DNA of 64,000 nt from Marsupella aquatica (taxonomy: Eukaryota > Plantae > Marchantiophyta), in NCBI GenBank assembly GCA_973895155.1, contig OZ316894.1:18452805-18516804 (forward strand), given 5' to 3'. The position numbers and the translations under genes are program-made. Shown one piece after another: positions 4,601 through 64,000 of the stretch. The notes under the pieces were generated by a model. It searched no databases. It was not told the origin of the DNA and saw only the letters and a list, made by a program, of their open reading frames with translations. Every line of letters starts with the position of its first letter. Positions within the stretch are counted from its first letter, which is position 1.

Positions 4601-4888
4601 TCTGGAGAGCCTCGCCGGAGAATTTCTATTGCTCCGCACGGAATCTTCAGATTTGTAACTCCTCAAGTCATCAGATTTGCAACTCCTCAAGTCATCGTTC
4701 GCTTCAAAGGCTGCATTGCACCACACCACCTGCCTTGCGTCCTCGTCTCTTCCAGATGGAAGGGTCCGTACTCTGCCATCTGCAATGCCAAAGTCAAAAT
4801 CCTCTGTTAGTCTATAACGAACCTCTCCAGCCAATTTCAAATTTTCATAGCACCGGCAAATACTCAGATTCGTTTGATTACTAGCACG
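1643..4888 (-). CDS. Large terminal exon (>1000 aa) of a disordered Ser/Arg/Pro-rich protein from a conserved uncharacterised land-plant family; 5' exon(s) lie upstream
   Basis: 3.2-kb stop-free frame bounded upstream by TAA at 4889-4891, with no ATG near its start, so it must be spliced. Short motifs I recall from this family: W.NAAF (QVVWCNAAFE), coiled coil DIEHEIEQEISMEILQLSERLAALHAKQ, RKGRVVAAKF, VPSRY and C-terminal LPRIR...SPRDSG..KR...FYF. Confidence 0.8.
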   Translation of the reverse strand, partial: RASNQTNLSICRCYENLKLAGEVRYRLTEDFDFGIADGRVRTLPSGRDEDARQVVWCNAAFEANDDLRSCKSDDLRSYKSEDSVRSNRNSPARLSRNVESDFPGSANQKQDQQAWTSGISNVGANPNAISSQENFPYGPAISGNSAVAGNSPATVIEKSPQHNSRLPHVTELELESAAGEWYNPMGSEAGESSNTSRNFGQGHEKPMDQSKTRRLLAASPSFKTKAPPSLCHANRHVPIRGRSSSCTNSRNYPKYVAEVPSNCESDGRRSSNPRTCVSYDNGPRSARRTGGMPVLAGKVDPPRNCTPKIQMVEEDLEADIEHEIEQEISMEILQLSERLAALHAKQETRRVGGGVGQERPKSGGISCPQTPTRNAPSPCGSDTTKRRKGRVVAAKFLQYTNDGTQVKRDKSVNRNERPAAKLLGFSDSPFMGRPNPPRRSLGTPSRLLTKGKQNGQQRSSSPNHMGKERTVTRPTDSEDQSRGIGATTVPYEEYVRSRAMLESGSSRRVARVLSHKNLGEEDRKEWNDKGIGQQVKKKENQPASTLCTGSTTTPQPHFYPEFERKVDWVKTLRTDPISAAHLCGTTNTPSPALDERFLKQKSERHDVHAWLRENIDVVEGNCEIPGICEAGLQRGVQADVGKRRTAEEEDSTISTRPSNAWSSSLRRARTATPSRSVPNRPTTPSRGNARTVPSRYGTPVKVVHSRDHPGNACFDPKPIIENPGAKTTPSKIHSKDLNGGLPMRKASPTIRKGYPAESAFRNEASKGGSGALKDERGPAYSNQGERKITVVEAEYEKFVQEGVHLDKRSPVVVDGGLRGLGAKQEVRSKTPSSIRHRDMPDPPGSATKPAKRIFIRCSDLIKDKHSMLVKGKQRRLAGQSVLPSDGLDSDDSVFARSNTRTDLSELDEYNSRSEEASIIEECTYIKHCQHSQRRAVEGMPFLTGPGSCKSWETATPDYDIVYDYESGNARGSSYRPEDYTLEMMLQYVDTLKCERESLPRIRAIKDDGAGSGSPRDSGCIKRRKEGEKRARFYFTAGGEANKVQVPKCASTDIDGLSPNEIEGLDLESFWCLVGEPQPNLI

Positions 4889-13000: not shown

Positions 13001-16000
13001 AAGTACTATCGGGAAGATGCATCAGACCGGTTGTACAAGAAGTCTCTCTTGATGAGTCTCAGGCCCAAGGAAGGGAGCAAGATGCAGGATCACTTGGATG
13101 AGTTTGATAGTCTAGCGGTGGATCTATCAAACCTGGGTAAAGGAGTTGAAGATGAGGATAAGGCCTTGCTTTTGCCAAGCTCCTTACCGCCGTCATATCA
13201 GGGCTTGAAACAAGTGCTCTTGTATAGAGATCTGAAGTCCATTTCATATAATGAGGTGGTGAGCTCTTTACTGTCTGATGATGCTCAGAAGAAGCTGGGT
13301 CAATCACAGACAACATCTTCTTCTGGCACTGCACTGAACATGAACCGGGGAAGACAAACGCGGCGCACGAATGGACAGAACTGGATTAGATCTACATCAC
13401 GGGGGAGATCTAAATCCAGAGGGAAATCGCAAGAGAGGAAGCCTCTTGCATGTTGGAATTGTGGCAAGCCAGGCCACATGAAGAGGGATTGTCGAGTAAA
13501 GGTCCCTACTGCATCTGCTAACGCGGCATCAAGCTCGCATGAGGTAGATTTACTCGATGATGATGACATATTGTGATGCCGAGGTTATGCTCTCAACGTA
13601 GAGTCAAATCCAGGTAGTGATGACTGAATTTTAAATAGTGCATGTACTTTTCACATTTGCTCTAGGAAAGATTTTTTCAATTCTTACACGGTTTCCAACG
13701 GGTCAGTGTTAATGGGAAATGGAATCCCATGTCAAGTTGTTGGACTTGGATCTGTAAGATTTCAGATGTTTGATGATGCTGTAAGAACGTTAAAGAATGT
13801 GAGACATATTCCCAACATGATGAAAAATCTCATTTCACTTGGAGTTTTAGAGGCAAATGGCCATCAGTGGAGTTCTGCTAATGGTGTCCTTCAGGTTTCA
13901 ACTGGTACTAAAGTTGTATTAAAAGGAAAGAGACATAACAATCTATACGTTTTGGAGGGTAGTGTAGTCTGTGATGAAGCCAATGTAACCATATCTCATG
14001 AGGAGACGACCCGGCTGTGGCACTTCTGTTTGGGCCACATGAGTGAAAAAGGTTTGGTTATTTTTCAGAAGAAATGATTACTTTCTAATTTGCAATCTTG
14101 TAAGTTGGAATTTTGTGAGCACTGTGTGTTTGGGAAGCAGCACAGGAAACCCTTCGGAGTTGGAGCTCACACCAACAAGGAGGTACTTGAGTATGTACAT
14201 AGTGATGTGTGGGGTTCAGCCCCTACTCCCTCACATTCTGGACGATTATACTATGTCACGTTCATAGACGATTACTCAAGGTATGTGTGGATATACTTTT
14301 CACACAATAAGTCTGATATTTTTGCCACTTTTAAGGAGTGGAAAGCCCAAGCAGAGAATCAGACTGGTAATAAGATGAGATATCTTTGATCGGATAACGG
14401 TGGTGAATACAATTCCGTGAAATTTGGAACGTATTGTAAGGAGTAGGGGATTACTTGCCATCTCACAACAAGTTATACTCCTCAGCAGTGTTTTTGAGAG
14501 ACTCAACCGAACACTATTGGACCGCTCGAGGAGTATGTTGAGTCAATCATGCTTACCACATGAATTTTGGGTTGAAGCTGTCAACACTGCAGCTTATTTG
14601 GTAAATTTTTCTCCATCCAGTTCTATTGGATTCAAGACGCCATTTGAAATGAGGTATGGGCGTCCAGCAGATTACTCATATCTGAGGATTTTTGGATGTG
14701 ATGCTTATGTGCTTACACCTTCCCAGCTTTGATCCAAGTTGAAGTCCAAGTCAAAGAAGTGCATTTTTCTTGGCTATCAGAAAGGTGTGAAGGGTTATAG
14801 GTTATGAAATCCAGTCACCTGTAAGCTAATTGTCAATAGAGATGTGTCATTTAATGAATCCAGATCATCAAAGGAAGGGGAGAATTCTCAGGACTCCCAT
14901 ACTAACAAGGGGAAATCTCTTATCCCGGATCGGGTTGAGGGGGAGATTAGTCATGATGCAGTTCATGACAGGAGAGATGGAGAAGTTCCGGGCTTGGAGC
15001 TGGTTCCTGTGATGGAACAAGAGGAGCAGATTGTTGCTGGGGTACCTCAAATTCAACCAATAGCAGCAGCAGATCAGCCTGAGTCATCTACTAGAAGAAC
15101 TTCCAGTCGTTCTACTAGAGCTCCTACCAGGTATGGTCAATGGGCAGACTCATCTAAGCTAGATGATATTGACATTGCACCTAATGATGATGACATGACT
15201 TTGATCTTGGAAGAAGGAGAGCCTTCTTCGTACAATGAGGCTTGTACTTCAGAGCAGAAGCATGAGTGGAATGCAACAATGCAGAGGGAATTGCAATCTT
15301 TAAGTGACAACAAGACATGAGAGCTGATGGAGCTTCCAAGAGGTCAGCAAGTGGTGGACAGCAAGTGAATTTATAAGTTGAAGGACAATCCTTCAGAGGG
15401 TGGAGAAAAAATCTACAAGGCAAGGCTTGTTGCCAAGGGGTTCACTCAGGAGAAAGGAGTGGATTACAATGAGATCTTTTCACCGGTGGCTAAGTATTCT
15501 ACAATTCGGATCTTGTGTCAATTTGTTGTATTTTTTGGTGTGATGATGAATCAGATGGATGTTGTTACTACTTTTCTCTATGGCAACTTGGAAGAGATGA
15601 TCTTCATGAGACAGCCACTAGGCTTTATAAAGAAGGGCCAGAGAACTTAGTTTGCAGATTGCTCAAGTCCTTGTATGGATTGAAGCAATCTCCCAAACAG
15701 TGGAACAAGTGGTTTGATGATTTCATGCTTGCTCAAGGTTTTACAAAGATGGTGTATGATCCTTGTGTGTATACGAAATCAGTCAAGAATGATGTGTTTG
15801 GTTTCATCATTCTGATTATTTATGTGGATGACATGTTGATTGTGGCTAAAGATCAATTTGAGGTTGACAGTCTCAAGATGAAATTGAGTGCTGAACTTAG
15901 GATGAAAGATCTTGATAAGGCTAAGAGGATCTTAGGGATGGAGATTTTTAGGAACTCTGAGACTGGACAGTTTTGCTTGAGTCAAGGCCAGTATGCGAGG

Positions 16001-16235
16001 AAAGTACTTGCACGATTCAACATGAAGAACTGTAAGCCAATGAATATTCCTTTAGCTTCACATTTCAAATTATCATCGGTTTTCTCTCCTACGGATGATG
16101 TGAAGAAAGGTCTGATGACTAAGATTCCTTATGAGAAGACAATAGACAGTGTGATGTATTTGATAATTTATACTAGGCCTGACTTGGCCCTAACAATGGG
16201 CAAGGTTAACAGATTCATGTCAAATCCAGGGAAGG
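10073..16235 (+). mobile_element. Decayed Ty1/copia LTR retrotransposon (gag-PR-INT-RT), 3'-truncated before RNase H, gag interrupted by a solo LTR
   Basis: Gag KFEVEKYDGRIDYLLWEKQVKGVL (~10290); zinc knuckle CWNCGKPGHMKRDC (~13450); degenerate protease *ILNSACTFH (~13625); LWH..LGH and CEHCVFGKQHR; integrase HSDVWG, FIDDYSR, DNGGEY; RT YKARLVAKGFTQ, KSLYGLKQSP, YVDD (15821). Domain order is copia. Many stops and frameshifts. Homology ends at MSNPGK (~16235). Confidence 0.95.
10398..12867. mobile_element. Solo LTR (~2470 bp) inserted in the copia gag, with 5-bp TSD GCTTT
   Basis: GCTTT at 10393-10397 and 12868-12872 flanks a non-coding block with termini TATCAC...TGTCACA (TG..CA with one decayed base). 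Removing the block and one TSD restores the gag frame: GLAHLL|SSREWR*EQVIAVNAVMLYL. Internal ~39-bp duplication at ~11499/11557. Confidence 0.85.
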
Positions 16236-16537
16236 TACAACCATTCTCGAGAATCCCGCAACACCATCGACGTTTCTTATGTCTCTTATATCATAGATAT
16301 GAAGTACCAGTTCAATTCAAGGTCATCCAAAAGCACTATCGGGCTTTCATGTTCGATCACATTGAGATGTCGCCTTCCAGATTGCGTTGTGATGACCTTT
16401 GTAATCCTCGAATCCGGGACTTAGCTGTTGCCATTCTGATCTCAAACCATACTAAACTATTCCAGACAAGAGCCTTGTCATCCTCAACACAGGGTAACCA
16501 CTGCCTCATTCTGATCTCAAACCACCACTGAAGTGTT

Positions 16538-17425: not shown

Positions 17426-19739
17426 TCAATCGCTGTCGTGTCTTCTCCTACTATGCTTCTTGTCGGTGCTAAAACTCCTCTGCCGTTCATGATCTCTTCT
17501 TCCCTCTGTTTCCTTGTCTCTATTATGCCTTCCATTACCATCCCTGCTATCAAGTGACCTATAGTCTCTCCTAGGAGCCCTGACTGTTTCTTGCAACCTT
17601 CCTTGGCTGTCGTCTCTGTCGCTATCATACTTTACATTGCCATCATTGCTATGACGCGACCTATAGTCTCTCCTAGTAGTCCTGACTGATTGTTGCAGCT
17701 TCCCCTGGCTGCCTTCACTGTCGCCATCATGCCTTAAATTTCCACCCCTGCTATTTTGTGATCTATGGTCTCTTCTAGAGGTCCTAACTATTTCTTGCAG
17801 CCTCCCCTGGCTGCCTTCTCCATCACTATCATGCCTTACATTACTATTCCTGCTATTTTGTGATCTATGACCTATTCTAGAATCCCTGACTGTTTCTTTT
17901 AGCTTTTCTTGGCTGCCTTCATTTTCACTTTCACTATCATGCCTTACCCTATTATTCGTGCTGTAATACGACCTAGAGTCTCTCTTGCTCTGTGAATTTG
18001 AAAGGACAGATGTTCTTTTGTCTGCTTCTGGAAACATGCCTTGGCTGTCTTCACCATCACTGTCATGCCTTTTTTTACCATTCCTGCTGTGCTGTGAAAT
18101 ATAGTCCTGCCTAGAAATCCTGACTGTGTCTTGCAACCTTCCTTGACTCTCTTCACTGTCACTATCATGCCTTAACTTCGAACTCCTGGAATGATGCGAC
18201 CTATAGACTCCCTTAGGAGTCCTAATTGTTTCTTGCACATTTCTTTGAATGTCTTCACTGTCACTATCATGCCTCGCCTTACCATTCCTGCTCTGATGTG
18301 ACCGATAGTCTCTCCTAGAAGTCGCCCTGCTAGTTTCCTCCAAGCTGTCTCTGTCATGTCTTGCAGTGACAATGTCATTACGTCTTTCTGCCGACAAATA
18401 GTAGTTCCTAGACTGATCCTTGTGTCGAAAAGCTTTTCTCTCAGTATGATCTCTGCTAGTCTCCACTTCCTGACTGGCATACCTCACTTTCCTTGTACCA
18501 TCACTTCCGTCACCGTGGTAGCTGTCTGAGAGCTCCTCCTGCTCGCTTTCTCTAGCTTTGCTCGTTTTGCGCTTATGTTTATGCCGCTTCTCCTCTCGTC
18601 GTTTCTCTCGCTTTCTCTTCCTGGAGGAGATGCCTTCCTCTTCTGGACTGGAAGAACTCGTCTTATCCTCACCTTCGAGTCTCCTAGCTCCTAGACCATC
18701 CTTTGTGGCATCTCTGTTGCCCTCATCTCCGCTAGGTTCCTGGTTTTTCTGTTCATTGATGACTGGAGCGATTCTTTCAAAAGTAACGTTTCCAGATTTG
18801 TCAACCCCTGTTTGTCCACTTCCGAGTTGTCGAGGCGTTTCTTGCCCGGCGAAACCAAGTCCTTGAACCCTCTCTCCAGCTGCATAGGAAGGATCTGCCT
18901 CTACTCCATCCTTCACTTTCTGCAAGACTTCAGACATTTCCCGTGCGTCCAGTTGATTGCCCAGGCGTCGATTCTTCTTAGGAGCCAGGCCAAGCATTTC
19001 TTGCATGGCATCGTCCTCTTCTTCCTTCAATCTCTTGATTTCCTCAAGCGCAGCTGCTTCGTCAGAATGTCTATCCTTGGCGTACCAATGGAGGTCCTTT
19101 CCTGTTCATGTCAGATGCGTAAGTAAAACGATCTTTTGTCCAAAACTCGTAGGCAAAACTTTGCATCCGAAAGCCAAACAGGGAGAAAAACCCTAACAAA
19201 ATTAGTCAACACATTCACAAATCCAGCAGACAAAAGGGAGTAAAACCTAGTAGAATTGAGTGACGACGTCGATTCTATTGAGCCCTGAAGAAGCAGAAGG
19301 CAGATTCACACAAAGTACGTCTCAACTTTTCCAATTGCCGACGCTACGATCTCTTCAATCCTAGACGTACAAAGAAGTTGATTGCTCAGTTCAGCGATTC
19401 TTGAGGATTCCGTAGCGGATCGTTCTATGCGGTATTCAGAATTTAATCTGAACAGATCAGCCTGAGACTTGAGAAGCATCATGAAACATGAATCATCACA
19501 GAAGGTCTTTGCGATCCTAAACCAAGCGAATACTAGAAACCCTAATCAATCAGCTACACCACTGCTGGTAAGGACGAGTACCAGCGATCCAGTAAAGATT
19601 TCGCACCTTTCTGCCATCTCCCCACAGGAGCTTTGATACTGTGCCCGAGGTAGTTCTCCCTATGCTTGTCGCCCTTTATGTCCTCCCAATTGAACTGGTC
19701 ACGACCGCCTCGAACACCTCCTCGGGTTGGATGGTACAT
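17426..19739 (-). CDS. MMTAG2: Multiple myeloma tumor-associated protein 2 (C1orf35) homolog, 602 aa; exons 19739-19607 and 19101-17426
   Basis: N-terminus [45 protein letters not shown]|KDLHWYAK...[23 protein letters not shown] matches the family signature. The GT-AG phase-1 intron joins in frame (133+1676 nt). Confidence 0.92.
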
Positions 19740-25113: not shown

Positions 25114-26400
25114 TCACTTGCCTTTCCAAAACACGTCTGACGCACACTTGTATGCTTCCTTGCCCTCGCACTCCAGCTTGATGTCGTCAGACAAGAACTT
25201 CACCTCCTGCGCTCACGGATGGCCAAGTTCGGAGGCATCTAGTTAGACAAAGCGTTTCACATAGTCATGCTGTAATTAATCCTAAAAACATAGACAGATT
25301 TACGTCACCAGCACAAGCATTTATCAAAAAGCTCTCGCATGGCACACGTTTTCGTAGGAATCGACTTGTAGGCCGATAACATTCTGCCAGACAGTGTCTG
25401 TCTGAGGATACAACTTCTCTCCGGACAGTGTGCAGTCTCTAATTTGCTACATACACGCACAACTCCGTTTAGTCTCTGTCACGCTGTTGATGATGGCTCT
25501 AAAAGTGAAATCTGGGCCTTCAGACTGAGGGCTAAGATCCAGATCGACTGGATTGAATGCTGGACATCTGACGTATTCTAACACTTCACTAGGCAACACA
25601 TCGGACAACGAAAGTGGAACCGAGTATGTGGAATTATATGCATCCTAGTTGCTGACATGCAAACGCTGAGACTTTCCGAATTATAGGGTAAGTAAGGAGC
25701 TGCCAGCGTACCTGAGCCTTGGCCAAATCCTGGCATCCAGTGAAATTGTTGGGGAACCGGCATGTCCCGTTTTCTACAGTGTAAGCACGAGCAATGTTAG
25801 CTCCGCTGGTTGCGAGCCTCTTCCTGTCATTGAGCTCCTGCAGAGAGTGTACAAGAGCCATGATGTAATTCAGCCATTTGAGCATTGTAAGCATCCGCAT
25901 GAAGAGGGACACTCACTAGCAAAAGGAACATTACAAGCATTTCCACTTACATAACTTACTAACGTTCACCAGCCGGGGACATAGATCCACTAGACAATGA
26001 AGTGTCTGCTTGAGCCCATTCAGTAATTGTCATGAGTCCTATGATAGTACCACTTCCCTCAATGAACAGGCTAAGCGCATTGATCGAACAGAGGAACTAA
26101 CTCCACGATCTTAAGAGAAGTACTAACCTTGTTGGCAGCAGTCTTAGCCAAAAGGTCTTCAGTGAGCCCGGCCTTGGCATTGCCAGCACCAGCGAATAGA
26201 CCCAGAGCGAGCATGGCACCTGCCATCTTCACCACATCCCTCCTGCTGCTGGTCTCAGCGCTCGCCCTCACAGCAAGACTTCTCTGGGGGGCACTGTATG
26301 ACACTCGCACTCCATCGCAAGATGCCTTCAGATCCTTCACAGCCAAAGCTGCCGGGGATGCAATTACTGCAGCAGACCCAACAATCGACGAAGCGGCCAT
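25114..26400 (-). CDS. PSAN: Photosystem I reaction centre subunit N precursor, 163 aa; exons 26400-26128, 25837-25712, 25206-25114
   Basis: Transit peptide, twin-Arg Tat signal (SRRDV...AKA) and mature GLTEDLLAKTAANK|ELNDRKRLATSGANIARAYTVENGTCRFPNNFTGCQDLAKAQ|EVKFLSDDIKLECEGKEAYKCASDVFWKGK* with 4 Cys. Both introns are phase-0 GT-AG. Confidence 0.96.
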
Positions 26401-26680
26401 CTCTACAATATCTGTCGACAGAGCTGTGGTGAAGGCAAGAATTCCGAGGCTACACTCAACAATTTGCTCTGATTTCAACGCGAATAGGCAGAATGGAGAG
26501 CTCGCAATCACACCCACAAAGTATATCACAGCCTTGGACGATCCAATGTAGAGGGATTCCACTTCCCAGGCCGATAGACGAGACGATCAGTGAGATGGAG
26601 GCCGGCTAGTCTCGATCTATTCACAGGATCGAAATTATACAAAACGGCCCCGTGATTAGCGTGCCGCCTATGACCTAGGT

Positions 26681-48940: not shown

Positions 48941-49506
48941 AGAGAGGTCATTTAGTCAAGAGAGACTATCAATTTTGATTGCACATTATGTACCTTGAAA
49001 CCCGGGCATGACACGGTGTAACTATATCTTATATACAAAAATGAAATATCCAGGGCAAAAGTACAAAAAATGGAGAACATCTCCATGCATAGTGCCAGCT
49101 ATGCTAAAGGCTGGGCATATCAAATGTACATAATGCCCTCCAACTATCCACCTTGCTAGCCTAGTACTAGATCTATATATGTCTACCTAGTCCACTATCC
49201 ATACAAGCTATGTCGCGTCTTCCTCTTCTTCACACGGGAATGACTAGGCTGCTCTGCTCTATGAGTCTCTACTGCTGACACACTAGGTAGCACATTGTGA
49301 TGCCTAGCCAGGAATCACTAGGCCAATTAAGTGGGAAAACGGAGGTGTACCCTATAAACACATTAGTATAGTAACAAAAACAAGGAAATAAACAATTAAG
49401 GGTGACTATGGAACCCGGGCCGAGGCCGGAGGTAAGGACGTCGGGAGAGAGAACACAATTAGGGTTAGGGCGCGCTAAGCGTCGGTAGCTAGGGGTAACC
49501 AATGGG

Positions 49507-51103
49507 ATGAAAGACCAGAGGAGGAGAGGGGTAAGGACCGCTCGCGAGGAATGGTGGCTCAATTGCAAGCACGAACTGGGCAGACGACTATGGAAGGCCA
49601 ACTACTGTCAGCTGCTTAGGCAAGCACTCTGGGCGGGAGCAGATACCAACCATCGAGTCAAGGAGGGTATGAGCAACGTCAATCAAGCGACACATTTTTG
49701 GGGATGCCTGTTTGAACAGGCAACTGAGTACATTAGGACTTACGAGGACGAAGAATCAGAGAGAGCAGCTCGAGAACGGCAGGAGCTCGCTCGACTATGG
49801 GAGCTGCAAAAGTCTGCCTTCTTAGGAGGAGAACTCATCAAGGCCGAGTTCTTGTGGACTCCTACTACCAATCAGCTCGATGACCTTCTGTTTTGCGAAG
49901 ACAGAATCGTCGGCATTTGGGAAGCCATCAACCGCTGCAACGACGCGCACTGGGAGTTGAAGGGTAGCACGGAGGGGTGGACAAAGGCAACTGTGCTAGG
50001 AGAAACATCCACGGCAGCCGAGATGAAGAGGAAAGGAAACAATAATGAAGAGGCCACCCCGACAAAAAGAACGAGGTCGGCGGCACCAAGGAAGCCAGCA
50101 GAGCAGCTGAACAGGAGGCAGGGAGAAGCCGAAGAGGAGGAGGTTGATCCCATCAATGCCATTCCAACAAAGGATGACACCTGGAAAGGCTGGGCGGTGA
50201 CCCTACCAGAGGAAGTGCAATTACATTTTGCACGGGAGGAGGATGCATGCTTTACGGCCATGCAGACCAAGAAGTACTAGGGCTTCATGGCCGGATCCGG
50301 CTTGGAAGCCTTTGTAAGATTACCATGGCTGAAGCCGGAGGTGCCGGACTCAGACTTATTAGAATTCGTGGGATCATGGGAACCCGAGACCAATTCCACG
50401 AGGGTGTATGGGAAGGATTTCTATCTCACTCCCCGGGTGATTGCCGAGGTGTTTGGCTTGCCGATGGGTAATAAGACCAAGGTTGATACCAGGAAGACCT
50501 TACTTGACAAGGAGTTCTGGTCGTTCCTAGGACCATCAACGAAGAATGGCTTCTTCTGGAACACCTGCACCAACCCGCACATCGGAGAGATGATCGATTT
50601 CTTGCGGGTGACCATGCACTGTAACTTGCCGAGGGCAGAGATCGGCAAGGCTCAGGTCTACCTGGCAGAAAGGCCAGACCCAAGCCGGGATTACAACGAG
50701 TACCTCCTCAACCAACTGAAGAAGATCTTGAAGGAGGAACAGCAGGTGATCGGCGTGGGAAGCATGTCCCGGCTTGGCTATCACATGCCGCTGTTGTGCC
50801 GGTATGCCAGAAGTCAAATCTTTGCCCCAGTACTTCCCCTATCGGCAAGGGCACCGGAGGAGGTTTCGGAGCAGAGGCCGGCAACAGAAGAGCCCAACCA
50901 GCCTGCTAGTCCTACGATCGAGCAGGTGTTTCGGCCAAGGAAAGAAGACTTGCCGATGCAGCAATCAGGCATGTAGAATCTGCTGAAATTGCTAGAGAAG
51001 GAGAGAACGGCACCGGCAACGGCACCGGTACAGGACACTGCCCAGAGGCCGGCCTAAGCCGACTCAGGAGGGAAAACCCCTTTACCGGAGCCAAGGAGAG
51101 AAG
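49507..51103 (+). pseudogene. Retroelement accessory ORF (plant mobile domain / Athila-ORF1-like), interrupted by stops
   Basis: ORFs 49507-50280 and 50287-50976 share a frame across one TAG. The motif GLEAFVRLPW...LLEFVGSW...RVYGKDFYLTPRVIAEVFGLP resembles plant transposon accessory proteins. Confidence 0.55.
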
Positions 51104-52756
51104 TGTCACACCATTCTAGGTAGTGTTAGAGTGTATCGTACTATCTAGATTTGTATGTTTGGTATGTGTGCTATATGAGCCGATAAGGTTCCGTCAGGTT
51201 TGTGTGAGAGGGTACTTCTCACTTGTGAGGCATTGAAAGGTCATCTTTCAATGTTGAGCCTTGGAGAGAGAGGAGCTTGAGTGTGGCTATGGTGGCTGTG
51301 AGCTCCGCTTGTGTAACGTGGATTCCTTGAGTAGTGCAAGGTGTGTTAGCTTGACATACGTGTGTGATCGGATCGGTACGGGATCGATGGGGTATTGTTG
51401 ACCGGGATCGTTGTGCCGATTGTATTGAGATTACATTGAAAGATCACATTCGAAATCTGTTGTACAGACTGTGCGGACAGAAGTTCGATTGATTGAGTTG
51501 TCGATGGTTCGTGGTAGCTCGGATCGTGTGTTGTTATCGAACAGATCGTTGGTATCTTGACCTGTATCATTGTTGTCCGATCGGCCTGTTTCCCGATCGA
51601 TGTACAGATCTGTGATTGGTGACAGGTTTTGAGTTGGAGGTCGATTGATGATTTGTGGAGGAAAGCGAATGTTGAGTAGATGTTGGACAGTGGAAGTCGA
51701 TCCGTGAGGCTTCAGATCCGATTGCCGGCTACTATGAGGCTTCAGATCTGATTGTCGGCTACTGTGGGGCTTCAGATCTGATTGCCGGCTATTGTTGGAC
51801 GATGTTGGCAAGGCGCAGGTGAAGCGACGGCTCTTTTCCTGAAGGAACGGAGCTGCCAATGCCCCGTGCGGCGGTATCATCGTTTCAATGAAAGAAACGA
51901 GGGTCAAAGGTGTTGAATCAAGCTGCTGCCAATTCTATGGAAGGGCTGTGTTTTTCATGAAGGAAATCGACAGTTTTCGGGAGCTTTTCGTGAAGGAAGT
52001 AGTCATTTTTGGGGTCAGGTGTGAGGCGCACGAGGTCACCCATCCTGAAAGTGCTCGCGCGAGGCGACGCGTGAGGTCACCCATCCCGAAAGTGCTCCCA
52101 ACCGCGAGCGCGAAGTCACCCATCGCAAGCGCAGGCAGGTGTGAGGTCGAGATCACCCATCCCGGGGCTATTCCAGGCCGTGAGCGCAAGGGGAGACACG
52201 AGGTCGAGCGCAAGGAGGTCACCCATCCCGGGGCTATTCCCAGCCGCGAGCGCTTAATTGGCAAGTTCTCATCCCACCTTGTGTACACACAAGTTTTCAC
52301 AACTTGTTGTTTAGATTCAAGTGCCAGAGGACTTTATACACTTTCCGGTTTGCTTAGAGCCTTGTTTCGGGCCAAATCAGAGGCTCTTTAGAGGTTTTTG
52401 ATAATTCTGAGTTCATCTAAATACACAGATTGAACCAATTGTGCATGGTTTCTCATCTATAACATTGGGACATCATGAAGCCTATTATGAAGGCCTTTCA
52501 TTGAACATTATGAATATTTGTTTGATCAATGTGTGATCACTCTTGGTGTGGAGAGTTAGTGTTTGACTATTCTTGTTGATTGGATCCTCTCCACACTTGT
52601 TTCCTGTTTATGCGCCATGTTGGTTCGGTGTGAGCGCTTGATTCCATAGGAGTGATCTGGGTTTGCAACTGGACATTCTAGTGTGCTGTGTATTTCTCTC
52701 CTGGTGATGTTGGAGTGATGCCCAACACACCATGGTGAGTGCTTGTGGTGCTGACA
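51104..52756 (+). repeat. Putative 5' LTR (~1650 bp) of the methyltransferase-carrying gypsy element
   Basis: Perfect terminal inverted repeat TGTCA (51104) ... TGACA (52756), ending ~45 bp before the gag frame. Internal 30-bp tandem repeats (~51705-51790) and gaggtcacccatcc repeats (~52030-52235). There is no second LTR in the window to confirm it. Confidence 0.6.
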
Positions 52757-55641
52757 GGGATAGATTGCCCTTAGGGTTAGCACATAGATTAGATTAGGGT
52801 TGGTCACCACGGATTCTTTTGGTGCTGCTGGATTACCCGATGGACGACGGACCGGTTTCACTCGGAGTGGGGCACAGTTTCGGCCAGCGGTATTGGTAGC
52901 AGTCAGCAGTGCAGCTTCAGACAGTGATTCCGACGAGGACTCAGTGATCAGTTCTCCTCGTCATCAGGTGGTTGCACCTTTGTTGTGGGATATGGACGAG
53001 ATGTACGGGGCTACAAAGGGCCCACGACGATACTCTGGTGCAGTTGGCACAATTGATCTGGATGACTTCATCCAGGAGTTTGATACGTGGTGCGATATGC
53101 AGACATTGCGTAACGCCACGTTGTTTACCCCTTTCATGGCATGGAAGGGATTATTTTAGCATTTGGAGGGGCCACCCATGGATGACTACCATGAGTTTTG
53201 GAAGGCTCATTTGGTTGAGATTGAGGCATGGAGGCAGCATTGGTCACCTAATTACGTGTCCATCACCTATGGCACTAGTGCGGCTGCCCAACCCATTGCC
53301 ACAGCTACTGCCTCTTCTAGCAACACTAGCCAGAGTGGCACACCATCCACTAGCAGCACTCCAGCAGCATCCACCGCTACTCCTGCCGGTGTGATTGTGA
53401 CAGGAACTGGAGTTGCGCCAGCATTTAACCCTCTGTGGAATTCTTTGAGGTACTGAAGCAAAACTATCAGAGTGTAAGAACTGATAAGTTGAAGGGTCTC
53501 CAGGAGTTCCAGTGCAAGACTGGAGAGAGTCTACGTGAGGCATACACTCGTATGCGCAGATTGATCACTGTCACCAAGGGAGTGACAGAGGCTCAAGCAG
53601 TCCAATTTTGGTATGCAATTTTGGACAGAGAATTGCGACGCAGAGTGAGAGATGTCACTCTGCTTAGGGATGCAGATCCCACATTAGCAGTTGTTTTCAC
53701 CCTTTTTGAGCGCATTGAGCTCAATATGGTGAATGAGAAGGTGGTGACTTCTGGATTTGCCAAGGAAGCACCAAAGGCTGCATCTACATCCACACCACAG
53801 CCTACTACACGGAAGAGCCAGAGGGAGAAGCCTACTGCACGAGAGTCTACCAGCCAGAGACCTGTGCCCTCTTATGCTGGACAGCTGCCAGGATATTGGA
53901 CCTATGGTGGGGATCATGCACAGAGATATTTCCCAGATCATAGAGGATCAGGGGGAGCATCAGCACCTGATCAGCGATAGTGTGATCATTGTGGGGCTCC
54001 TGGACACACCAAGGATAGGTGTTTCTCACTCCACCCTGAGTTACGGAGGGGAGGATCCCGTACACATGATCAGGGAAGAGGAGGAGGAGGTAGAGGTGGT
54101 GGACGTGGTCGTGGCATGCCACATGCAAGGAGACAGGGAGGTGACGTTGCCCCTGCTTAACCATAGATCCAAAGGATGCTAAGATTGCTCAATTGGAGCA
54201 ACAGCTAGCTGCCATGGCTAGTTCCCAGATGAGACCTACTTTTGGTGATGGGGCATCTACATCCTATGGACCTTCCACATCCCATGGTCCTTCCACATCT
54301 TATGGAGTTGATGGAGATCTTGCCACAATGGGATTCATGTGTGGCACTGCACATATTGATGCATCAGCAGCTTTGACACGTGGGGCAGCCAAAGCTCTTG
54401 AGCCCCGAGGAGCAGTAGTGGAGCTAGATCCACAAAGGGGGGATGCACGTCGGCAGACAAAGCTTCCTCAGTCTTTTACATTGTCAGAGACAGTTCAGAC
54501 TGCCTCTATGAACCCGGTTCGGACAAACCCTAGCGTGGGTAAGTTGGCAGAATCCGGTAGTGATATAGTAGGGATGACAAGTACCCTGCTGGGGGTGGCT
54601 ACTACCATAGTACGCACCCCATTATTTTCAGCGACAGACATGTTGAACTTGGGAGTTGGTCCTGCAGAAGTATTCAGATTGGCAGCTACACTCTGTGAGG
54701 ACACTCCAGTTGTTGCTTCCCATGTAGAAGCAACTTGCAGTGTTGAAGCAGTGAAGACCATACCACCTACTACTACTAGTGAGACATGGCATGCAGCAGC
54801 AGCGAGGTTGGTGGATTTACCAGCACGCCCTGCATTTGAGAGGACTAGGTTTAAACCTAGTGTTGTGTCATTGGATAATCGGAGTGGTATCTTCCGATTA
54901 GTTGGGCCTTCTGGAGTAGTATACCAGCCAGAGAGAGTGTTACTGGATACTGGTGCTCAGCCCTTGATGTTGGGGAAGTCTGCCATACGTGGATTGGGAT
55001 TGCGTCTAGAGGATTTGGAGGATTGTCCCTTTCCCATTCAGACTTCATTGGGGGGACCTACACCTACACAGCATATCACCAGGAGACCACTTGATTTGAG
55101 GATTCAGGAAGGTCATACCACAGATAGCTCACAGATATAGGTGCGAGCTATTCTGACTAAGGCAGAGTCATATGATGTGTTGGTGGGATGTACAGTGCTC
55201 TACCCCATGGGATTTATTCTTGATTTTTGGGAGGAATCAGTGTCATATAGACCTGATTGGCAATCAGGAGATGCTCGATTGAGCAAATTGCTAGTGAGAT
55301 TTAGTGGACCTGTGGGAGGCCCTAAATCCACACCATTGTCTTTGGCAGCATTCAGTGGTGTAATTGCTGGACCTGATGATTTGATTGAGGGTAATGCGCA
55401 TGCAGCCGATGTTCCACCATTGGAGGAGTCTCATGAGGAGCACATCATTTGAGGATTACCTGTTGGCAGTGTTGTGCCACCAGTGTGGGGCACTGCACAA
55501 GCCTTGCCACAGGCAACAGCATGATTGGTACATGATGCATGGCGTCATGCTTTTACACCACAGTCAGGAGTAGAGCAGTCTCTTGCAGATGGACCTGTGA
55601 CTCTTTCACCATTGGATACCACTCTTATTGCTTGGCAATAT

Positions 55642-56600
55642 CCACCGGAGGGTATTTGTTTGTTGGATCTTTTTGGTGGGATTAGCATTGGATTGGCTAC
55701 TGTTCTTCAGGCAGGAATTCCTGTGCGTCATTATTTGTATGTGGAGACAAATGAGACAGCACGGAGGGTCTCATTGCGACATGTGGCTATATTGGTGGAT
55801 AGATATCCACAGTTGCTGCTAGTGGATGCTGTTTGTGGTTATCAACATGCACTACCTGCTGATATTTCATTGCTGGGGGCGGATCATCTGCATCGTGTTG
55901 GCCCCATTGATTTGGTGATTGTTGGTTGGCCATGTCAGGGCTAATCTAGAGCTGGCATTGGGCATGGACTTCATGATCCACGCTCTGCATTGTTTTGGGA
56001 GATGTTACGGGTGCTGCGTCATCTCCAGCTACATCAGACACAGTCTCCAGCATATATTTTGGAGAATGTGCCATTGTTAGGTGATGATCGTAGTTGGATT
56101 GTTGCCAGTGTTCACCAGGTGAGGTCTTGGATTGGACCTGTTGTGTTATTGGATGTTGCACGTGTGGGTTCTCGTGCACATCGTCCACGCTTGTGGTGGA
56201 CTAATTTGATCCCATGTGAGGTGCTGAAGCGCGCATTTGACAGCATTCCACGCTCACCAGCCTTAGTGGTGGATGATATTTTGGATCGAGGGTGTCGAGC
56301 ACAGGGTGTGACCCAACCTGATAGACCTCTATTGGAAATGGTCAATGCAGTTGGGCGCCCACGTTGTGCATTACCCACTCTTGTAAGCCACTCTACTTCA
56401 TATGCATTCAGAGTAGGTGGCCCTGGACTTGTGTGGGACACAGCTCTCCAGCAGTTAGTGGAGCCTACTGCTGATGAGAGAGAGCGTGCTATGGGATTTT
56501 GGACTGGCACCACTGCAGTTGCCTCTGTGTCAGAGGGTTTGCGGCGCCAGGTTCTTGGTCAAGCAATGGACCTGAATTTTTTGACTTGGATTATCAACTT
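55642..56600 (+). pseudogene. DNA (cytosine-5) methyltransferase domain, DNMT3-like, embedded in gypsy Pol (one internal stop at 55942-55944)
   Basis: Motif I LLDLFGGISIG; II YVE; IV IDLVIVGWPCQG*SRAG..GL.DPRSALF; VI YILENV; VIII SRAHRPRLWWTNL; TRD LPTL; IX ERERAMGF; X RRQVLGQAMD. Same frame as upstream protease and downstream RT. Confidence 0.93.
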
Positions 56601-59600
56601 GGGAGTAGCTGAACAGTTGCGGATGCGCTCTGCTGGAATTACTGATTGTCCCTTGGTGAGCTTGCGGTCCACTGAGACAGTATTGACCACAGCTGGGGGC
56701 GAGCAGACAGTCCATGGACCTATGGCAGGATTGGCCAAGGCTGGACAGATTATTGAGCAGGAAGGGACTGCTCAATCTACTGCTAAATAGCAATCATCGG
56801 CTATCTCTTCTACCCTACAAAGAGATATTAGGGATTTGGTGGAGAGTGGGGAACCACAGCTTGGCCCTAAGTTAACAGGGGAGGAGAGACATCGCATGCA
56901 TCGATTCCTGAAGAGTTATTGGAATTGTTTTGCATTCAGCATGAAGGATTTGGGGACACTGAAGGGCCCTGGTATTCAGATTGAATTGGCTAGTGATGCG
57001 CCAATCTTTCGTAGACCATACCGTTATAGTGACATGGAGAGAGCTCTGATTCAAAGCAGAACTCAAGATTTGTTGGAGGTTGGATTGGTGGAGATTTCAT
57101 ATGGGGAGTATGCATCTGCCACAATGATGCCAGCCAAGAAGGATGTGCATGGCAATTACATAGATAGGCGCATGTGTGGTGATTACAGACCTATTAATCG
57201 CCAGACAAAATCTGATCGATATGCCATGCCCACACCTGAGGAGATCTTTGATGCTGTGGGGCATGCAAAGGTTTTCAGTTCATTGGATCTGAGGGCAGGG
57301 TACCATCAGCTTCCAATTAGGCATGCTGACAGGTCCAAGACAACATTCTGGGGGATTGATTCTTATGGCAAAGATCGTTTGTATCAGTGGTTATTCTTAC
57401 CATTTGGGTTGAAGAATGCACCAGCTGAGTTCCAGAGAGTCGTGGATCGAATCCTTGCAGGTTTGGATTTTGTCAGATGTTATGTTGATGATATTTTGGT
57501 CTATTCTTCTACTGTGGAAGAACATCAGCAGCACTTGCAGATTGTGTTGGAGAGATTGAGAGCACATGGGTTGAAGCTCCATCCTGGCAAGTGTAAGTTC
57601 TTCCAAGACCAGATTGAGTATTTGGGCCACACTATATACCCAGGGGGATTGGGTGTACAGCAGACTAAAGTGGAGGCCATTACACAGATTCCTTGTCCTA
57701 CTGATGTGAGTAGAGTTCGTGCATTCTTGGGATTGGCGAGCTACTACAGGAGGTATGTTAAAGGATTTAGCCAGCTTGCTAAACCTTTGACCATACTCAC
57801 TAAGTTGGATCAAGAATGGATTTGGGGTAATGACCAGGAGCATGCCTTTCAGGAGTTGAAGCAAAGGTTGGCATCATCCCCTATTTTGAGAAGACCCATT
57901 TCAGGCAGACCATTTCAGCTACATACTGATTGGAGTGGAGTAGGACTTGGAGCAGTGCTGACTCCGAAGGATGATGAGGGGAATGAGTTTGTTGTGGCTT
58001 ATGCCAGTAGATCAAACAATTCAGCAGAGGCTAAGTATAGCTCTTATGAGGGAGAGTGTTTGGCAGCAGTGTGGGCTGTTGCACACTTTTGTTGCTACTT
58101 GTTTGGTAACCCCTTCACCTTGATCACTGATCATCAGCCTCTTAAGTGGTTAATGGAGTCTGACAAGCTTACAGGGAAGCTTGCACGATGGGCATTGTTG
58201 TTACAGGAGTATGATTTCCAGGTGGTGCATAGGCCTGGAAAAGTGAACTTGGATGCAGATGGATTAAGCCGCAATCCATGTACCAGTCAGCAAGATGAGA
58301 CTGGAGCCAGATGGCATGACGAGTCAGATAAGGAGATGGTGCCAAGATGGCATGCATCTGCCTTTCTTTGTTGGGTGCCAGTATATAGTGGATCTGTGGA
58401 CTCTACCTCATTGGATGGAGTGGATGATGAGTCTTCAGATGTGGATGTTAGTGAGGTAACTACTGGACAGCAAGATATTCACGATGATGTGAGAGTGTTG
58501 GAATATCTGCGCAGTGGTTCTATTGTTGGCAGTGTTGATGTCAAGGAATGTGACAGGGTTCTACAGAGAGCCAAGAGGTTTCGATGGGAGGGAAACCATC
58601 TTTTGAGAGTACTGCATGATGGTAGGGTGTTGGTGGTACCAAAACCATCACAACGAGTACATTTGGTGCGACATGCACACGAGGAGTTGGGTCACTTTGG
58701 TGTGAAGCACACTTATAGCTTGCTGTAGACACAGTATTGGTGGTGTGGTATGGACTCATGTCCAGCAGTTGATAGCTAAGTGTGTGGTATGCGATAGAGT
58801 GAGAGCATCATTTAATGCTCCCACTCCCCAGTTGCACCCGTTACCGATTATGGGTTTGGGATATCGTTGGAGTTTGGATTTTGCTGGTCCATTACCTCTT
58901 ACCCAACGCCATAATCGGTATGTTTTGGTCATGGTGGAGCATTTCTCCAAGTGGATTGAGCTAGTGGCGTTGCCAAATAAAGCCAATGGAGGAGTAGCTG
59001 CTACATTTTTGGATCGCGTACTCAGTCATTTTGGAGCACCAGTTGAGGTGTTGACTGATCAGGGAACTAAGTTCCTTGGAGAGTTTGAGAGTTTGTGTGA
59101 ACAAGCTTTGATTGATAATCGTACTACCTCTCGTGATCATCCTGAGGCAGATGGATTAGCTGAGAGAGTTGTGCAAACTGTGAAGAGAGGATTGTGTAAG
59201 TATGGCTTGCAGGTTGGTCATCTGGGAGATTGGGATCTCCAGCTACCTTGGTTAGCTATGGGCTACCGTTTCAGTCGGCAAGCATCACTTGCATCCTTCT
59301 CACCTTACTTTTTGCTCTATGGTAGAGAGCCAGATTTTCCAGCAGCTATTCGTCGTGATGCTGCACCAGTTGTGAACTTGGATGATCCTGATGTTTGGGT
59401 CAAGGTGTGTTCAGAGAGAGCACGGGTATTTCAGAGAGTGATGCCCATGGCTTTGACAACCTTGCCATTGCCCAACATCGTGATACTTTGAGGTATGCCA
59501 CTATTCGTGGAGGAGGTTACCGTGCAAGCATTCGACCGATTTTATCCTGGTGATTATGTTTATTTGCAACAGACAGCACCCGCAACACTTGATGTGACCG

Positions 59601-59821
59601 CAGGCCGGACAATCTTACGTGTGCATGAAGTGTTGCCTTTTGGTGTCCTGATGTTGGAGGGACGCGATGGTATGGTTTGGAAGGATCATGTAACATGATG
59701 TCGGACCTATCGAGAAGGGTGACCACCCTTCTCGTTTTTCATGATCAATTTTTTTTCTAAGGCATGTAAAACCCGATACAAATTGTGCATTCCAGAAAAA
59801 TAGTCATCCATGATTAGGAGG

Positions 59822-62800
59822 AATGCAAAGATCGATACGGGTATCGACCTTTGCATTTGTAAATTCTTTGGTTATCAGAAATTTACAGAAATGGTAAAAC
59901 TGTGCATAACCGCGCAGTAGGCTCTAACTATGGTTAAGTTTAACTAGGGTTAAGCTAGAAATTAACCATAGCTACCTCCAAAAGTATAAATATGACTGCC
60001 CGCTCATGGAAAAAAGTTTCATTTTTCAAGTCCTCTTTCACAATCAAGCTCTCACCCAACCCAAAGAAAACCTCCTCTCCATACAGATGCGCATTCTGGT
60101 CTTAAGAATAAGCTTTCCACTTTCCAAAGCAAACTGTGATACTCGTATCGTAATCAGCTTTGTAGAAAGCAACTTGCGATACTTGTATCGTAAGTTGCAT
60201 TCAAACCTAAGTTTCAAACCCTCAACAATACAGGTATCGCTTGGTGCATTGAGCCAACTCAATTAGTCTCATGGTGCAGGAGTGAAAATACTTCAATCAT
60301 GGTTTAGATTCTGTCTCTTGAAGATTGTAAAGCCGTTTGCTGCTCATCTCGCAGTTCTTCATATTATGTTGGGGCCCTTATTTTCTCTTGGGTAGCTGTT
60401 GGTCGGATCCGAAAGCCAATAGCGATACTTGTATCACTCTTTGGATTGAGTAGTGTAGATTTAGGACGGACTGCGCTGCAAAGATCATTGGACTGGGTCA
60501 CTCGTGACCTCTAAGGTGGACCTGACAAAACCCCACCTAAACAAACACAAATACTCTGTTCCATTCGCTTACAAGCAAAAATGTGCCCAGCAAAAGTTGG
60601 GCTCGACAATCTTTTGAGTGCCCAAAGAGTGATGGCCTCGTGTCTATATCCTCTCCCATACAATGTTTCCCATTTTTTCTTGTCTTTGTGAGAGCTCGTG
60701 TGAGAGATTTTGGAAAGGAGCATTGTTTGGCTAGAGAGGAGACTGAGGAGGTGGTGTGGCCTGGCTGATTCAAAAAGAAATAGTTTTACCCTGTAGGCAG
60801 CACCAGAACAAGTTCTAGAGGCGGCGCAAATGAAGACAGTGCAAACCATGGTTTGTACTGTGAAAAGGATTTGGTCTGTTTCTTGAGTCATTTCCCTTAG
60901 TTGGTTTTGCACAAATAGTTTTTGAGGCATTCCGTGTGGCTTGTGAAAGACATATGAGATAGTCGTATTGCTTCGAGTAGGAGTCTTTGTGTTTTGTCAT
61001 CTAAAGAGGAATCGGCGGATGGATTGGAAAGTGTTGGCCCAATCCGAAAGCAAATTGTGGTGCTTGTATCTCTCTTGGGATTGAGTCATGTTGTTCTCAG
61101 AATTAAGCTGAATTCAGTAATCCCAGTTAAAACATCAGAAATTAACTAGAGACTCCATTAGAGCCTGCAATCTTGTATCTGTAGCCCGATCGTGGATTCA
61201 TGGATCCTCTTGGGGGTTTGTAAGGTGTTGGCTTGTTAAGAAAGCAAAGCTTGTTCTCTCGTTCTTCTCTCTCTGCTCAATGGCAACATTCCCAAAGAGC
61301 GGAGGAAGACTTGCAAGTATGAAGGACTTAGAATTCATCGTTGTCGATTTGGCCATTCCCACAATAACAATCATGACATAGTACTTGCTCAAATTGATGC
61401 AGCCAAAGGGCGACGAAGGAGAGGACAGTGAGTTGATCGTAGTCACCACCGGCAGAGAAGGAGTTGCAGCTTGTCATGTCTGTCAATCTATCTTTCCTTT
61501 TGTTCCAATTGTTTTGTAAGTTGCTCTTTTGCATCGCTGCGGGCATTGGCGATTCTTTTGCGATTTTGAGTTTTGAGAAGCAGATTAAGTGATCAAACTG
61601 ATAGTTTACATTGATTGCCAGTATCGTCGGCCTTTCTTCATTTTTTGAGCTTCTTGAGCTTCAGATTTGACTCACCGGCACTACATGTCATTGTGCAGAT
61701 GGACAACGATAGCCTTGACCCTTGCTGGATTAGAACCGCATGAGAATCAATAGCAGCTCCCAACAGACGCCCCTGCTCAAGGTTCCTGGACCCAGTAGAA
61801 AGCAACTTGGATGCCGTATTCAGAAGAAAGCAAAGCGCGATACTTGTATCGCTCGTGGGATTGATCAAGCAATGTAGATCTCAAATTTGATCTGCCAAAG
61901 GAAAACAATGGAAGGAAGTGCAAGGACAGGGTCTGCTGAGACCGAGAACCTCATGACAACTTTGTGTAATGTGATTTGGACGACAGAAGATATTTGTGAT
62001 GAACAAAAGTTTGTGAGGAGACCTTGGTACTTTCGGGATACTCGAATGATGTCCAAGGAAGCAGCTGACTGGGAGACACCCGTTCTTTGGGTTCAAGTGA
62101 AGAAAACATAGAAGATTACACTCTCCTTTGGTCCAGTAATTTGGGTTGCCGCATGTGACTTTAAGAAGGGTCATGGGAAGGAAAAATCTGTCGCTATTGG
62201 ATTGAGCTTCCTCACAATGTGTGGAAGCAAGGGTTTTGTGGCCCTTGTCGTGGACATGGATTTGTATGATCTCTCAACATTAGACAAATTTCCCAAAGAC
62301 CCTATTGTGAAGGAAGTCGCGAGTACAATTGAGATGGAGATCTTCAAGCCTGAGTGGGTTGCTAATGTTGTGGATGATTCGAGTCCTTTGATGTTGCCGT
62401 TTGTCCAAAAAGAGTATAAGAGACTCGTGGGTGAAGAGTTTAAACCCACACGAAGGATCAAAGTAAGGAAGCCAACCATTAGCGGGAGTGGCGCATCTTC
62501 AGTTGCAAAAGGAGTTGATTGTGCTAGTGGGAGCGGGGGACATGGGAAAGGGAATTCCCAAGTAGAAGCTACCATGAGAGTGATTCTAGGTGAAGCACCT
62601 CAATCTGTAGAGGCAAGCCCAAGCGCTACTGCAAGTGTTGGTCGTGGTCGAGGTCGTGGAAGGGGAGTTGTGGATGAATTGGTACCTGTCAAGGCAGAGG
62701 TTCCATCGCCATCAACTTCACTTGCAAAGAAGAAGAGGACTGGTTGGATTGGAGGCACAGGAGTAGCTCTAGCTGCAGATTCAAGTGGTGCAATAAGCAC

Positions 62801-62934
62801 TCCAGCTGTGTCAATGCATCAATCCAAAGAACGATTACCCCTTACCTCAGGTCCAACCTCAGCTGTCGTTAGCATTCCCCTGGTAAGTTTATTTGTCTAG
62901 AAAAAATGAATGTTGGGAGCGATACTTGTATCAC
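59822..62934. repeat. Dispersed palindromic motif (G)CGATAC-NN-GTATCG(C), at least 7 copies
   Basis: Copies at 59832-47, 60138-49, 60176-91, 60226-40, 60421-38, 61837-52 and 62919-34; degenerate copies at ~61060 and ~61170. Confidence 0.85.
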
Positions 62935-64000
62935 GCATTGCATTGAAATAATGAAAATGGTTTGCATTTTGAATTCTTCTTAAAATTCATTGCAAGCCAT
63001 GTTATTTTTCAGGGAGATGAGGAAGAAGAGACGTCGTTGGCTTCATTTGAGACAGATGCCATCAAGGCTGAACTTGCAAAGCTCATGCTTGAACGTAGAG
63101 TCCAGAGGACCAGTGTGCTTCTGCATGTCAATAATCTCATTTTTGAAGATGAGGGTGAGAATTCAACTTTAGTTAGACCTGTAGATCGGCTACATGTAGA
63201 GAACATCAAAATGTTGCTCATGAAAAACCCTTCCAACTTCATGGCTCCATTTGTTGTTGTAGTTGATCCAACAGATTGTCCCACAATTCATGAGTGGGAC
63301 ATTACTAAATCTAGGGTATGGAAGTATCGAGTGATTGGCGGTAATCATGGAGCTCGTGCAAAGGCTGAACTTTTCAAAATGTATGGAAAGCAAGTGTACG
63401 GTGAGATTGAGGCATGGGTTTACTCTGGTCTAACGAGACATGAGATCAGGATGTTGGCTTTCCAGCATAACTACGACCAGGAGTACCGTAAAACCATGAC
63501 ATCGATTGACAAAGTTCGTGCCTGTCACAATATTTTCATGGAAATGAATGTGGGGTCAACTAAAGAGGTGCGAGAAGCTTGTTGTAAGGAATGTATGCTT
63601 GATTACACTCCAGGTGTTCGTGACTCAATGGCCAAACATGACCCTACATTTCAGATTGCCTTTCGATCTGGGGAGATTTGGGAGCTCCAAGATAAAATTT
63701 TCTCTATGTGGCAAAAGTTTGAGATCCTTGGTCAAACAAAGCCAATCGTGGCCAAGTAGCTGTCAGCAACATCAAAAGGTAAATCAAAAGCTAAACCTAA
63801 ACCGCTGAGTGCAAGTGAAATCAAAATGAACAAGCTCTCTGGGCATTTCAATTTGAGGGTCTTCAGAGCTCTCCAGGGGCTTTCCAATCAGGAGCATGTG
63901 AAGCGACTCCTAAACAGAGTAATTGGAAAGAAAATCACTCTAGAACAAATGTTCAAAGAAGGTGAGACACTTAAGAAGTTGGCAAAGGTAAAGAAATTGT
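61908..64000 (+). pseudogene. Intron-containing gene for a ParB/Sulfiredoxin-fold protein, probably transposon-borne; two in-frame TAG stops; runs off the window
   Basis: One frame from ATG 61908 (TAG at 62109) to donor CTG|GTAAGT at 62883. Acceptor TTTCAG|GGA at 63012 (phase 0, in frame). Motifs LVRPVDRLHVENIK, YRVIGGNHGARA, AWVYSGL..EIRMLAFQHN. After TAG at 63757 the frame stays open to 64000 (FRALQGL...LLNRV). Confidence 0.7.

Follow-up and report, generated by a model that had tools for sequence, protein, structure and literature searches.

Retrotransposons that carry their own C5-methyltransferases have been described before, and the closest counterpart of the element reported here is KnitGypsy-Dnmt3 of the alga Klebsormidium nitens (de Mendoza et al. 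2018, PMC5890265). In the accessible part of its description, that element combines the Gypsy domain set of protease (PR), reverse transcriptase (RT), RNase H (RH), and integrase (INT or IN), the latter of the DDE type, with an unpermuted, DNMT3-related domain under purifying selection, and it has DIRS-like repeats arranged as A-coding-B-A-B. Retrotransposon-borne C5-methyltransferases are likewise found in the SymbioDIRS-Dnmt3 elements of the same report, whose enzymes methylate CG de novo in yeast, and in the EpiLTRs (bioRxiv 10.64898/2026.05.21.726589). What such enzymes do has remained an open question from 2018 onward, in part because they were known from dinoflagellates and a single alga, whose enzyme was silent in yeast. 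Here, we analyze a window of 64,000 nucleotides from Marsupella aquatica (Marchantiophyta; contig OZ316894.1, positions 18,452,805 to 18,516,804), to which all coordinates below refer. By its domains, stops, and frame breaks, the element that ends near 59690 of this window is a dead, 3'-truncated copy of an abundant Ty3/gypsy-type retrotransposon with its own DNMT3-like methyltransferase. The family has land-plant hosts, and its DNMT closes a first open reading frame (ORF1) of the type Gag-PR-DNMT before a UAG-CAR stop, whereas KnitGypsy-Dnmt3 has its DNMT in the Pol ORF, with no stop given in the accessible text. The features of the window copy are as follows.

52998..54180, plus strand: gag region, start of the ancestral ORF1 (tblastn with the natural ORF1 proteins P0003 and P0045, 55-70% identity, three frames)
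54928..55260, plus strand: aspartic protease with LLDTGA, interrupted by the stop at 55138 (PF13650, weak; tblastn with P0087)
55645..56620, plus strand: DNMT3-like C5 cytosine methyltransferase domain, motifs I-X unpermuted (PF00145, 39.9 bits)
56788..56796, plus strand: conserved in-frame UAG followed by CAA-TCA (UAG-CAR-YYA), likely a programmed read-through site between ORF1 and ORF2 (motif as defined in PMC2754532)
57169..58212, plus strand: Ty3/gypsy-type reverse transcriptase and RNase H in an open frame (RVT_1, 115.5 bits; RT_RNaseH, 117.8 bits)
58645..59691, plus strand: integrase, H2C2 zinc finger and rve core (stop at 58726, frame breaks)

The initial annotation, which was made from the sequence alone, had placed a full C5-methyltransferase domain between aspartic protease and RT, and all of the motifs that it named are indeed present in one frame: LLDLFGG at 55660-55680, PC at 55930-55935, ENV at 56062-56070, HRPRLWW at 56179-56199, ERAMGF, and LGQAMDL (GQAMDL from 56557). 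With X at the internal stop, the read-through translation reaches 39.9 bits for PF00145 (E = 4.4e-10), above the cut-off of 22. That internal stop, at 55942, is private to the window copy, since 98.7-100% of the depth shows another letter in four of four runs. When a profile of ten family domains was compared with solved structures, DNMT3A (86 bits) and DNMT3B (78 bits) scored above DRM-type enzymes (44-52 bits), HhaI (36 bits), and DNMT2 (about 30 bits). An AlphaFold model of the domain (mean predicted local distance difference test score, 80.5; predicted template modeling score, 0.80) likewise found DNMT3A as its best Foldseek match (E = 1.4e-18). Judged by these profile and fold scores, the domain is a DNMT3-related, nonpermuted C5-methyltransferase; its unpermuted motif order sets it apart from DRM, a distinction that PMC5890265 draws as well. 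The catalytic Cys of motif IV is intact in the window copy. Across 89 full-length natural domains, it is kept in 86, the RxR motif in all 89, and the motif VI Glu pattern in 78. The domain carries no targeting domain of its own.

The family is found well beyond the window. A search among longer proteins gave 39 matches, the named ones coming from Marchantia polymorpha, Calypogeia fissa, two Sphagnum species, and Closterium, and a profile search gave 81 protein matches and added Monoraphidium (P and L numbers are our own labels for proteins and loci). A K. nitens protein was absent from both match sets, and the comparison with KnitGypsy-Dnmt3 is therefore one by description. Alignment-based scans yielded 80 related loci; locus scans with the single protein P0001 found nothing. 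In all 38 loci that show both PR and RT, the DNMT lies between them, a count biased by the retrieval of loci through DNMT or PR patterns. Between lineages, the ratio of nonsynonymous to synonymous rates (dN/dS) of the DNMT is 0.08-0.28 where dS is finite (13 of 25 DNMT sequences compared) and 0.12 for L026/L030, the sole unsaturated pair, and that of RT is 0.04-0.10 (5 of 6 RT sequences compared). Dead moss-type copies compared with each other gave 0.39-0.88, as expected after insertion. These values indicate that the DNMT domain is under purifying selection between lineages.

The DNMT tree (quick IQ-TREE, 50 rows) and the RT tree (FastTree, 32 rows, without an outgroup) agree, the former being effectively unrooted, with a single short and long-branched outgroup obtained from seven viral loci tried; 30 viral loci match only short methyltransferase stretches, with E values of 6e-14 or weaker. 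The window copy groups with liverwort and moss-type sequences (support of 100 and 99). Elements whose ORF1 ends after the DNMT at a UAG-type stop form one clade in both trees (support of 96 and 99), and the window copy lies inside it. The sister clade, monophyletic in both trees, has the layout RT-RH-DNMT-IN-PHD, which 35 of 120 DNMT-bearing proteins fit. P0033, P0037, P0107-P0137, and P0139 belong to this clade, Monoraphidium is its sole named member, and three proteins have a precomputed PF01585 match. In more distant relatives, for example P0087 and P0093, the frame from DNMT to RT is continuous. The Marchantia ORF1 proteins of the Gag-PR-DNMT type (P0003, P0051, P0052, P0058, and P0059) are annotated as hypothetical or CCHC, and two of the five are on the V chromosome. 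These homologues bear out the view of the initial annotation that the domain is no later chance insertion and that a gypsy element probably akin to the Klebsormidium one is present in land plants, as do the shared domain set, the low dN/dS, and the agreeing trees.

The second feature of the family is the stop at the DNMT-RT junction, which reads TAG-CAA-TCA at 56788 in the window. Among the 80 loci plus the window, 43 sequences were scorable, having a recognizable motif X and enough sequence downstream (37 lacked a recognizable motif X and one ended too early), and 41 of these 43 have TAG or TAA followed by CAR-YY. As a control, CAR follows only 4 of 70 decay stops inside DNMT domains. The window, L031, and L110 have TAG-CAA-TCA, L026 and L030 have TAG-CAG-TTA, and L017 has TAG-CAA-CCA, with L079 doubtful; 34 further matches are of one moss type. 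The strict form, CAR-YYA, is found in the window, L017, L026, L030, L031, and L110 and in a ruined second element of L041 (1268-6084, minus strand), a much more decayed DNMT-RT-RH-IN element with about 30% identity in the DNMT that has kept TAG-CAA-TCA. The frame is maintained across linkers of six different lengths (123, 142, 156, 165, 180, and 183 codons), in lineages near synonymous saturation.

The two closest proteins, P0001 and P0040 (84% identity in the domain), end at the residue where the window frame stops, and it is on them, rather than on reads, that the sharing of the stop by other copies in the same genome rests. All five Marchantia ORF1 proteins, 1278-1281 amino acids long, end 97 residues past motif X, ahead of RT. 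The layout is cleanest in L026, where an ORF1 of 1369 amino acids (PR, DNMT) and an ORF2 of 1047 amino acids (RT, RH, IN, PHD) are separated by a single stop. The first Met of ORF2 is residue 117 in both L026 and L110, beyond the start of RT. Folding of the 100 nucleotides 3' of the stop in six sequences gave z scores from -0.9 to -3.1 and no consistent structure. From its recurrence across lineages, we conclude that the stop at 56788 is conserved family-wide and is not a product of decay. There is very little room for doubt that the methyltransferase domain is real, related to DNMT3, under selection between lineages, and coinherited with RT, or that the stop and its context are conserved. As a side observation, L110 (1-9285), a family element with two open ORFs, makes up an entire contig, its ends overlapping by 127 bp, in a GTDB cyanobacterial assembly; it is probably eukaryotic contamination collapsed to a circle.

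The conserved stop also changes how the window copy is to be read. The frame from 54145 comprises protease, C5-methyltransferase, and RT-RNase H and has stops at 55138, 55450, 55522, 55942, 56788, and 58726, positions that agree with the earlier statement that the ORFs at 54193, 55141, 55525, 55990, and 56836 share one frame. They are not separated only by point stops, as had been proposed, given the conservation of 56788-56790 across the family, nor is a single ancestral PR-MTase-RT-RH-INT polyprotein supported, the domain closing ORF1 at the UAG-CAR stop. The integrase core of the window copy lies in a different frame past a break near 58.75 kb. The coding region also starts about 1.2 kb before the extent first given (54193 to 59695), gag beginning by 52998 in the same ancestral ORF as PR and DNMT. 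Gag itself is decayed, with stops at 53157 and 53978 and frame breaks near 53.43 kb and at 54.1-54.18 kb. Family similarity to the window starts at about 52300-52550 by bin coverage. The PF13650 match of the protease is weak (17.9 bits, below the cut-off of 24.3). Ty3 Pol is the best solved relative of the family profile. The copy is inactive, as had been noted, in view of its decay stops and frame breaks, with the catalytic PC intact. All 30 bins of the element are covered by contigs from four of four runs; a single contig, in one of the runs, leaves out the DNMT region, and bin depth is not to be read as copy number.

At its 3' side, the window copy ends near 59690 within the integrase C terminus, before the PHD finger and terminal repeats of its relatives; for 16 of the 17 listed loci, the blastn matches stop at 59661-59692, mostly at 59691. 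The break adjoins TGTAACA, presumably a start resembling that of a long terminal repeat (LTR), and the segment from 59689 to 64000 is probably a later insertion there. The relatives do not have ordinary paired LTRs, contrary to what the proposal to date LTRs had assumed. In the eight moss-type relatives with both ends visible, the arrangement is A-coding-B-A-B in four (L021, L027, L041, and L044), A-coding-B in three, and rearranged in one. Their termini are TG...CA, with an exact 4-bp target site duplication (TSD) in six of the eight, and CA-nn-TG is found at the internal B-A junction, with an altered G in one copy; we take this junction to resemble that of an LTR circle. The integrase ends in a PHD finger (ORF2 of L026, L031, and L110). 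Other known groups were considered and rejected. ORF1 and ORF2 of L026 and L110 contain an rve integrase and no recombinase family, which, with the exact 4-bp TSD in six of eight, excludes DIRS/Ngaro elements. Troyka elements, restricted to animals, have CG...CG termini and a 3-bp TSD in the accessible text of PMC12440569. Chromoviruses (Tcn1, Chlamyvir, etc.) have a C-terminal chromodomain, whereas all three complete ORF2s have a PHD finger and no chromodomain.

Taken together, the family is probably kin to KnitGypsy-Dnmt3, with which it is compared by description and which shares its repeat arrangement with four of the eight moss-type relatives, the window copy lacking this 3' end. The 4-bp TSD, TG...CA ends, A-coding-B form, and PHD finger of the relatives are not mentioned in the accessible text on KnitGypsy-Dnmt3 (PMC5890265). 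SymbioDIRS-Dnmt3, like other DIRS elements, uses a tyrosine recombinase instead of the DDE integrase and PHD finger seen here (PMC5890265, accessible text), and the EpiLTR enzymes are described, in the available part of that preprint, as DNMT4-related and accompanied by DAM and a chromodomain. A 2026 preprint, in its accessible text, names a group "streptophytes (Gypsy-DNMT3)". By title and opening of the abstract, we found no report of DNMT3-bearing gypsy elements in land plants, or of read-through in them, in a search that left Repbase and most of the subscription literature outside. A term search of the accessible text of PMC5784723, PMC9477723, PMC9033089, PMC10952607, PMC3350952, PMC11244446, PMC12344493, 10.1101/2023.01.30.526367, and 10.1101/363937 found none either. 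The family itself is thus of a known kind, to which we add the probable read-through arrangement, the termini with their TSD, and the RT-RH-DNMT-IN-PHD sister clade.

An in-frame UAG ahead of a polymerase is familiar from the type I read-through of tobacco mosaic virus (TMV), which shares the CAR-YYA context (PMC2754532), and from murine leukemia virus (MuLV) gag-pol (PMC5009743), both cited from accessible text. The CAR-YYA motif is essential in TMV and allows 6-10% read-through in stably transformed plants, and rice gypsy elements have been named as read-through candidates (PMC2754532). In contrast to TMV and MuLV, the stop here follows Gag-PR-DNMT and leaves a chromatin enzyme on the abundant side, and read-through is predicted from sequence. 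By analogy, we consider it very probable that ribosomes read through the UAG-CAR stop, at roughly 6-10%. Most ribosomes would then end after Gag-PR-DNMT and a minority would continue into RT-RH-IN-PHD, the methyltransferase being produced at Gag-like abundance and in large excess over RT. The protease may free the methyltransferase within the particle, where the enzyme would modify the cDNA of the element before integration, probably at CG, and new insertions would come premarked, as self-restraint or camouflage. Processing, packaging, and de novo methylation of cDNA are on balance plausible by analogy with described systems, and we lean slightly toward the whole chain, from the Gag-PR-DNMT ORF1 and leaky stop to a packaged enzyme that methylates cDNA. 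A wider version is offered tentatively, with rather more doubt than confidence: an old retrotransposon lineage in bryophytes and relatives, with split repeats and a DDE integrase, might rely on a leaky stop of the TMV type to bring as much DNMT3-like enzyme as capsid protein into its particles and place 5-methylcytosine onto its own cDNA before integration, the DNMT having been relocated within Pol in the chlorophyte-type sister clade.

Several observations weigh against this reading. The KnitGypsy-Dnmt3 enzyme produced no methylation in yeast, a result that its authors call inconclusive (PMC5890265, accessible text). CpG depletion is 0.33 in the element versus 0.41 in a neighboring copia remnant; the two values are close, and the depletion therefore gives no pointer to self-methylation. 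The motif VI Glu is matched in only 78 of the 89 domains, and dS between lineages is mostly saturated. As for the stop, a single moss-type family, represented by redundant contigs, accounts for 34 of the 41 junction matches, and indels have put eight of these 34 out of register; CAA-CCC-ATG, the sequence in 33 moss-type copies, departs from CAR-YYA at base 6 and has an AUG that could permit reinitiation; 10 moss-type copies have TAA instead of TAG; and the linker is disrupted in the two misses, L006 and L007, which are one sequence. The Marchantia junction is known from protein ends. Finally, the protease also precedes the stop, and selection on the layout might concern PR.

Conceivably, the enzyme is conserved and active with a target other than packaged cDNA, acting after integration or on insertion site chromatin via the integrase PHD finger, or it serves mainly as a nucleic acid-binding Gag module. 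Gag-level abundance would exceed what one cDNA per particle requires, the integrase of the relatives terminates in a PHD finger, there is no element-specific CpG signature, and de Mendoza et al. left the role open in the accessible text (PMC5890265). Yet the DNMT sits inside a retroelement polyprotein in all three layouts, which favors in-particle delivery; it has no targeting domain of its own, and the kept catalytic residues argue against a purely binding role; we regard this alternative as unlikely, though worth keeping in mind. Less likely still is a bypass of the conserved stop by splicing or reinitiation instead of read-through. Ogre/Tat elements resemble the present family in having the protease with Gag in ORF1 and RT-RH-INT in ORF2, and they splice a comparable junction, but in them a spliced stretch of about 274 bp lies between the ORFs, and DNMT is not mentioned in the accessible text (PMC6317226). 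Four bryophyte gene models (P0006, P0009, P0013, and P0030) fuse DNMT to RT, but their fusion points all differ, and splicing would not need a single in-frame stop with CAR-YY at six linker lengths. Reinitiation would be served by the ATG three codons past the stop in the moss-type family, but L026 and L110 have no Met before residue 117 of ORF2. A host or foreign methyltransferase captured once by the window copy and decaying neutrally would fit the broken state of that copy and the dN/dS of the dead moss-type copies among themselves. It is ruled out by the same domain position in Marchantia, Calypogeia, Sphagnum, and Closterium proteins, the 38 of 38 loci that hold the domain, the low dN/dS between lineages, and the congruent trees, and we give it a negligible chance; the initial annotation had named a missing PF00145 match, or relatives that lack the domain and neutral evolution, as grounds for rejecting its proposal, and the match, the loci, and the dN/dS values all point the other way.

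If the packaged enzyme indeed methylates element cDNA, land-plant transposons could start their own de novo methylation without relying on host RNA-directed DNA methylation or DNMT3. The family occurs in Marchantia polymorpha with several uninterrupted Gag-PR-DNMT ORFs, such as Mp4g09160 and Mp5g06330, and is therefore testable. Transposons are derepressed in the met mutant of this species, and CRISPR mutants of its methylation machinery exist (10.1101/363937, accessible text). From the conserved and probably leaky stop, a high ratio of methyltransferase to RT is expected, and because of this stop, annotation splits or mis-splices these elements. Their split repeats would presumably escape LTR-pair finders.

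The remainder of the window holds further features. Upstream of the element, two same-frame ORFs of 263 and 231 amino acids with a single TAG between them lie at 49489-50976, without a Pfam match, and are followed by short tandem repeats at 51705-51794 and 52027-52253. An ORF of 1081 amino acids at 1646-4888 (minus strand) also lacks a Pfam match. The copia remnant is at 12893-16528 (plus strand), a gene with an MMtag domain, whose only two matches are from Marchantia and Ceratodon, is at 17429-19739 (minus strand), and a PsaN-like gene with a weak Pfam match is at 26074-26586 (minus strand); these two genes and the tree placement fit a land plant of bryophyte grade. Beyond the element, the segment from 59689 to 64000 contains a 39-nucleotide repeat, present eight times at 59821-62946, and ORFs at 62112-62900 and 62947-63759. 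A Pfam search with the latter ORF gave no match, and its Atlas look-alikes are DUF3723 and ParB-N clusters, recognized below threshold.

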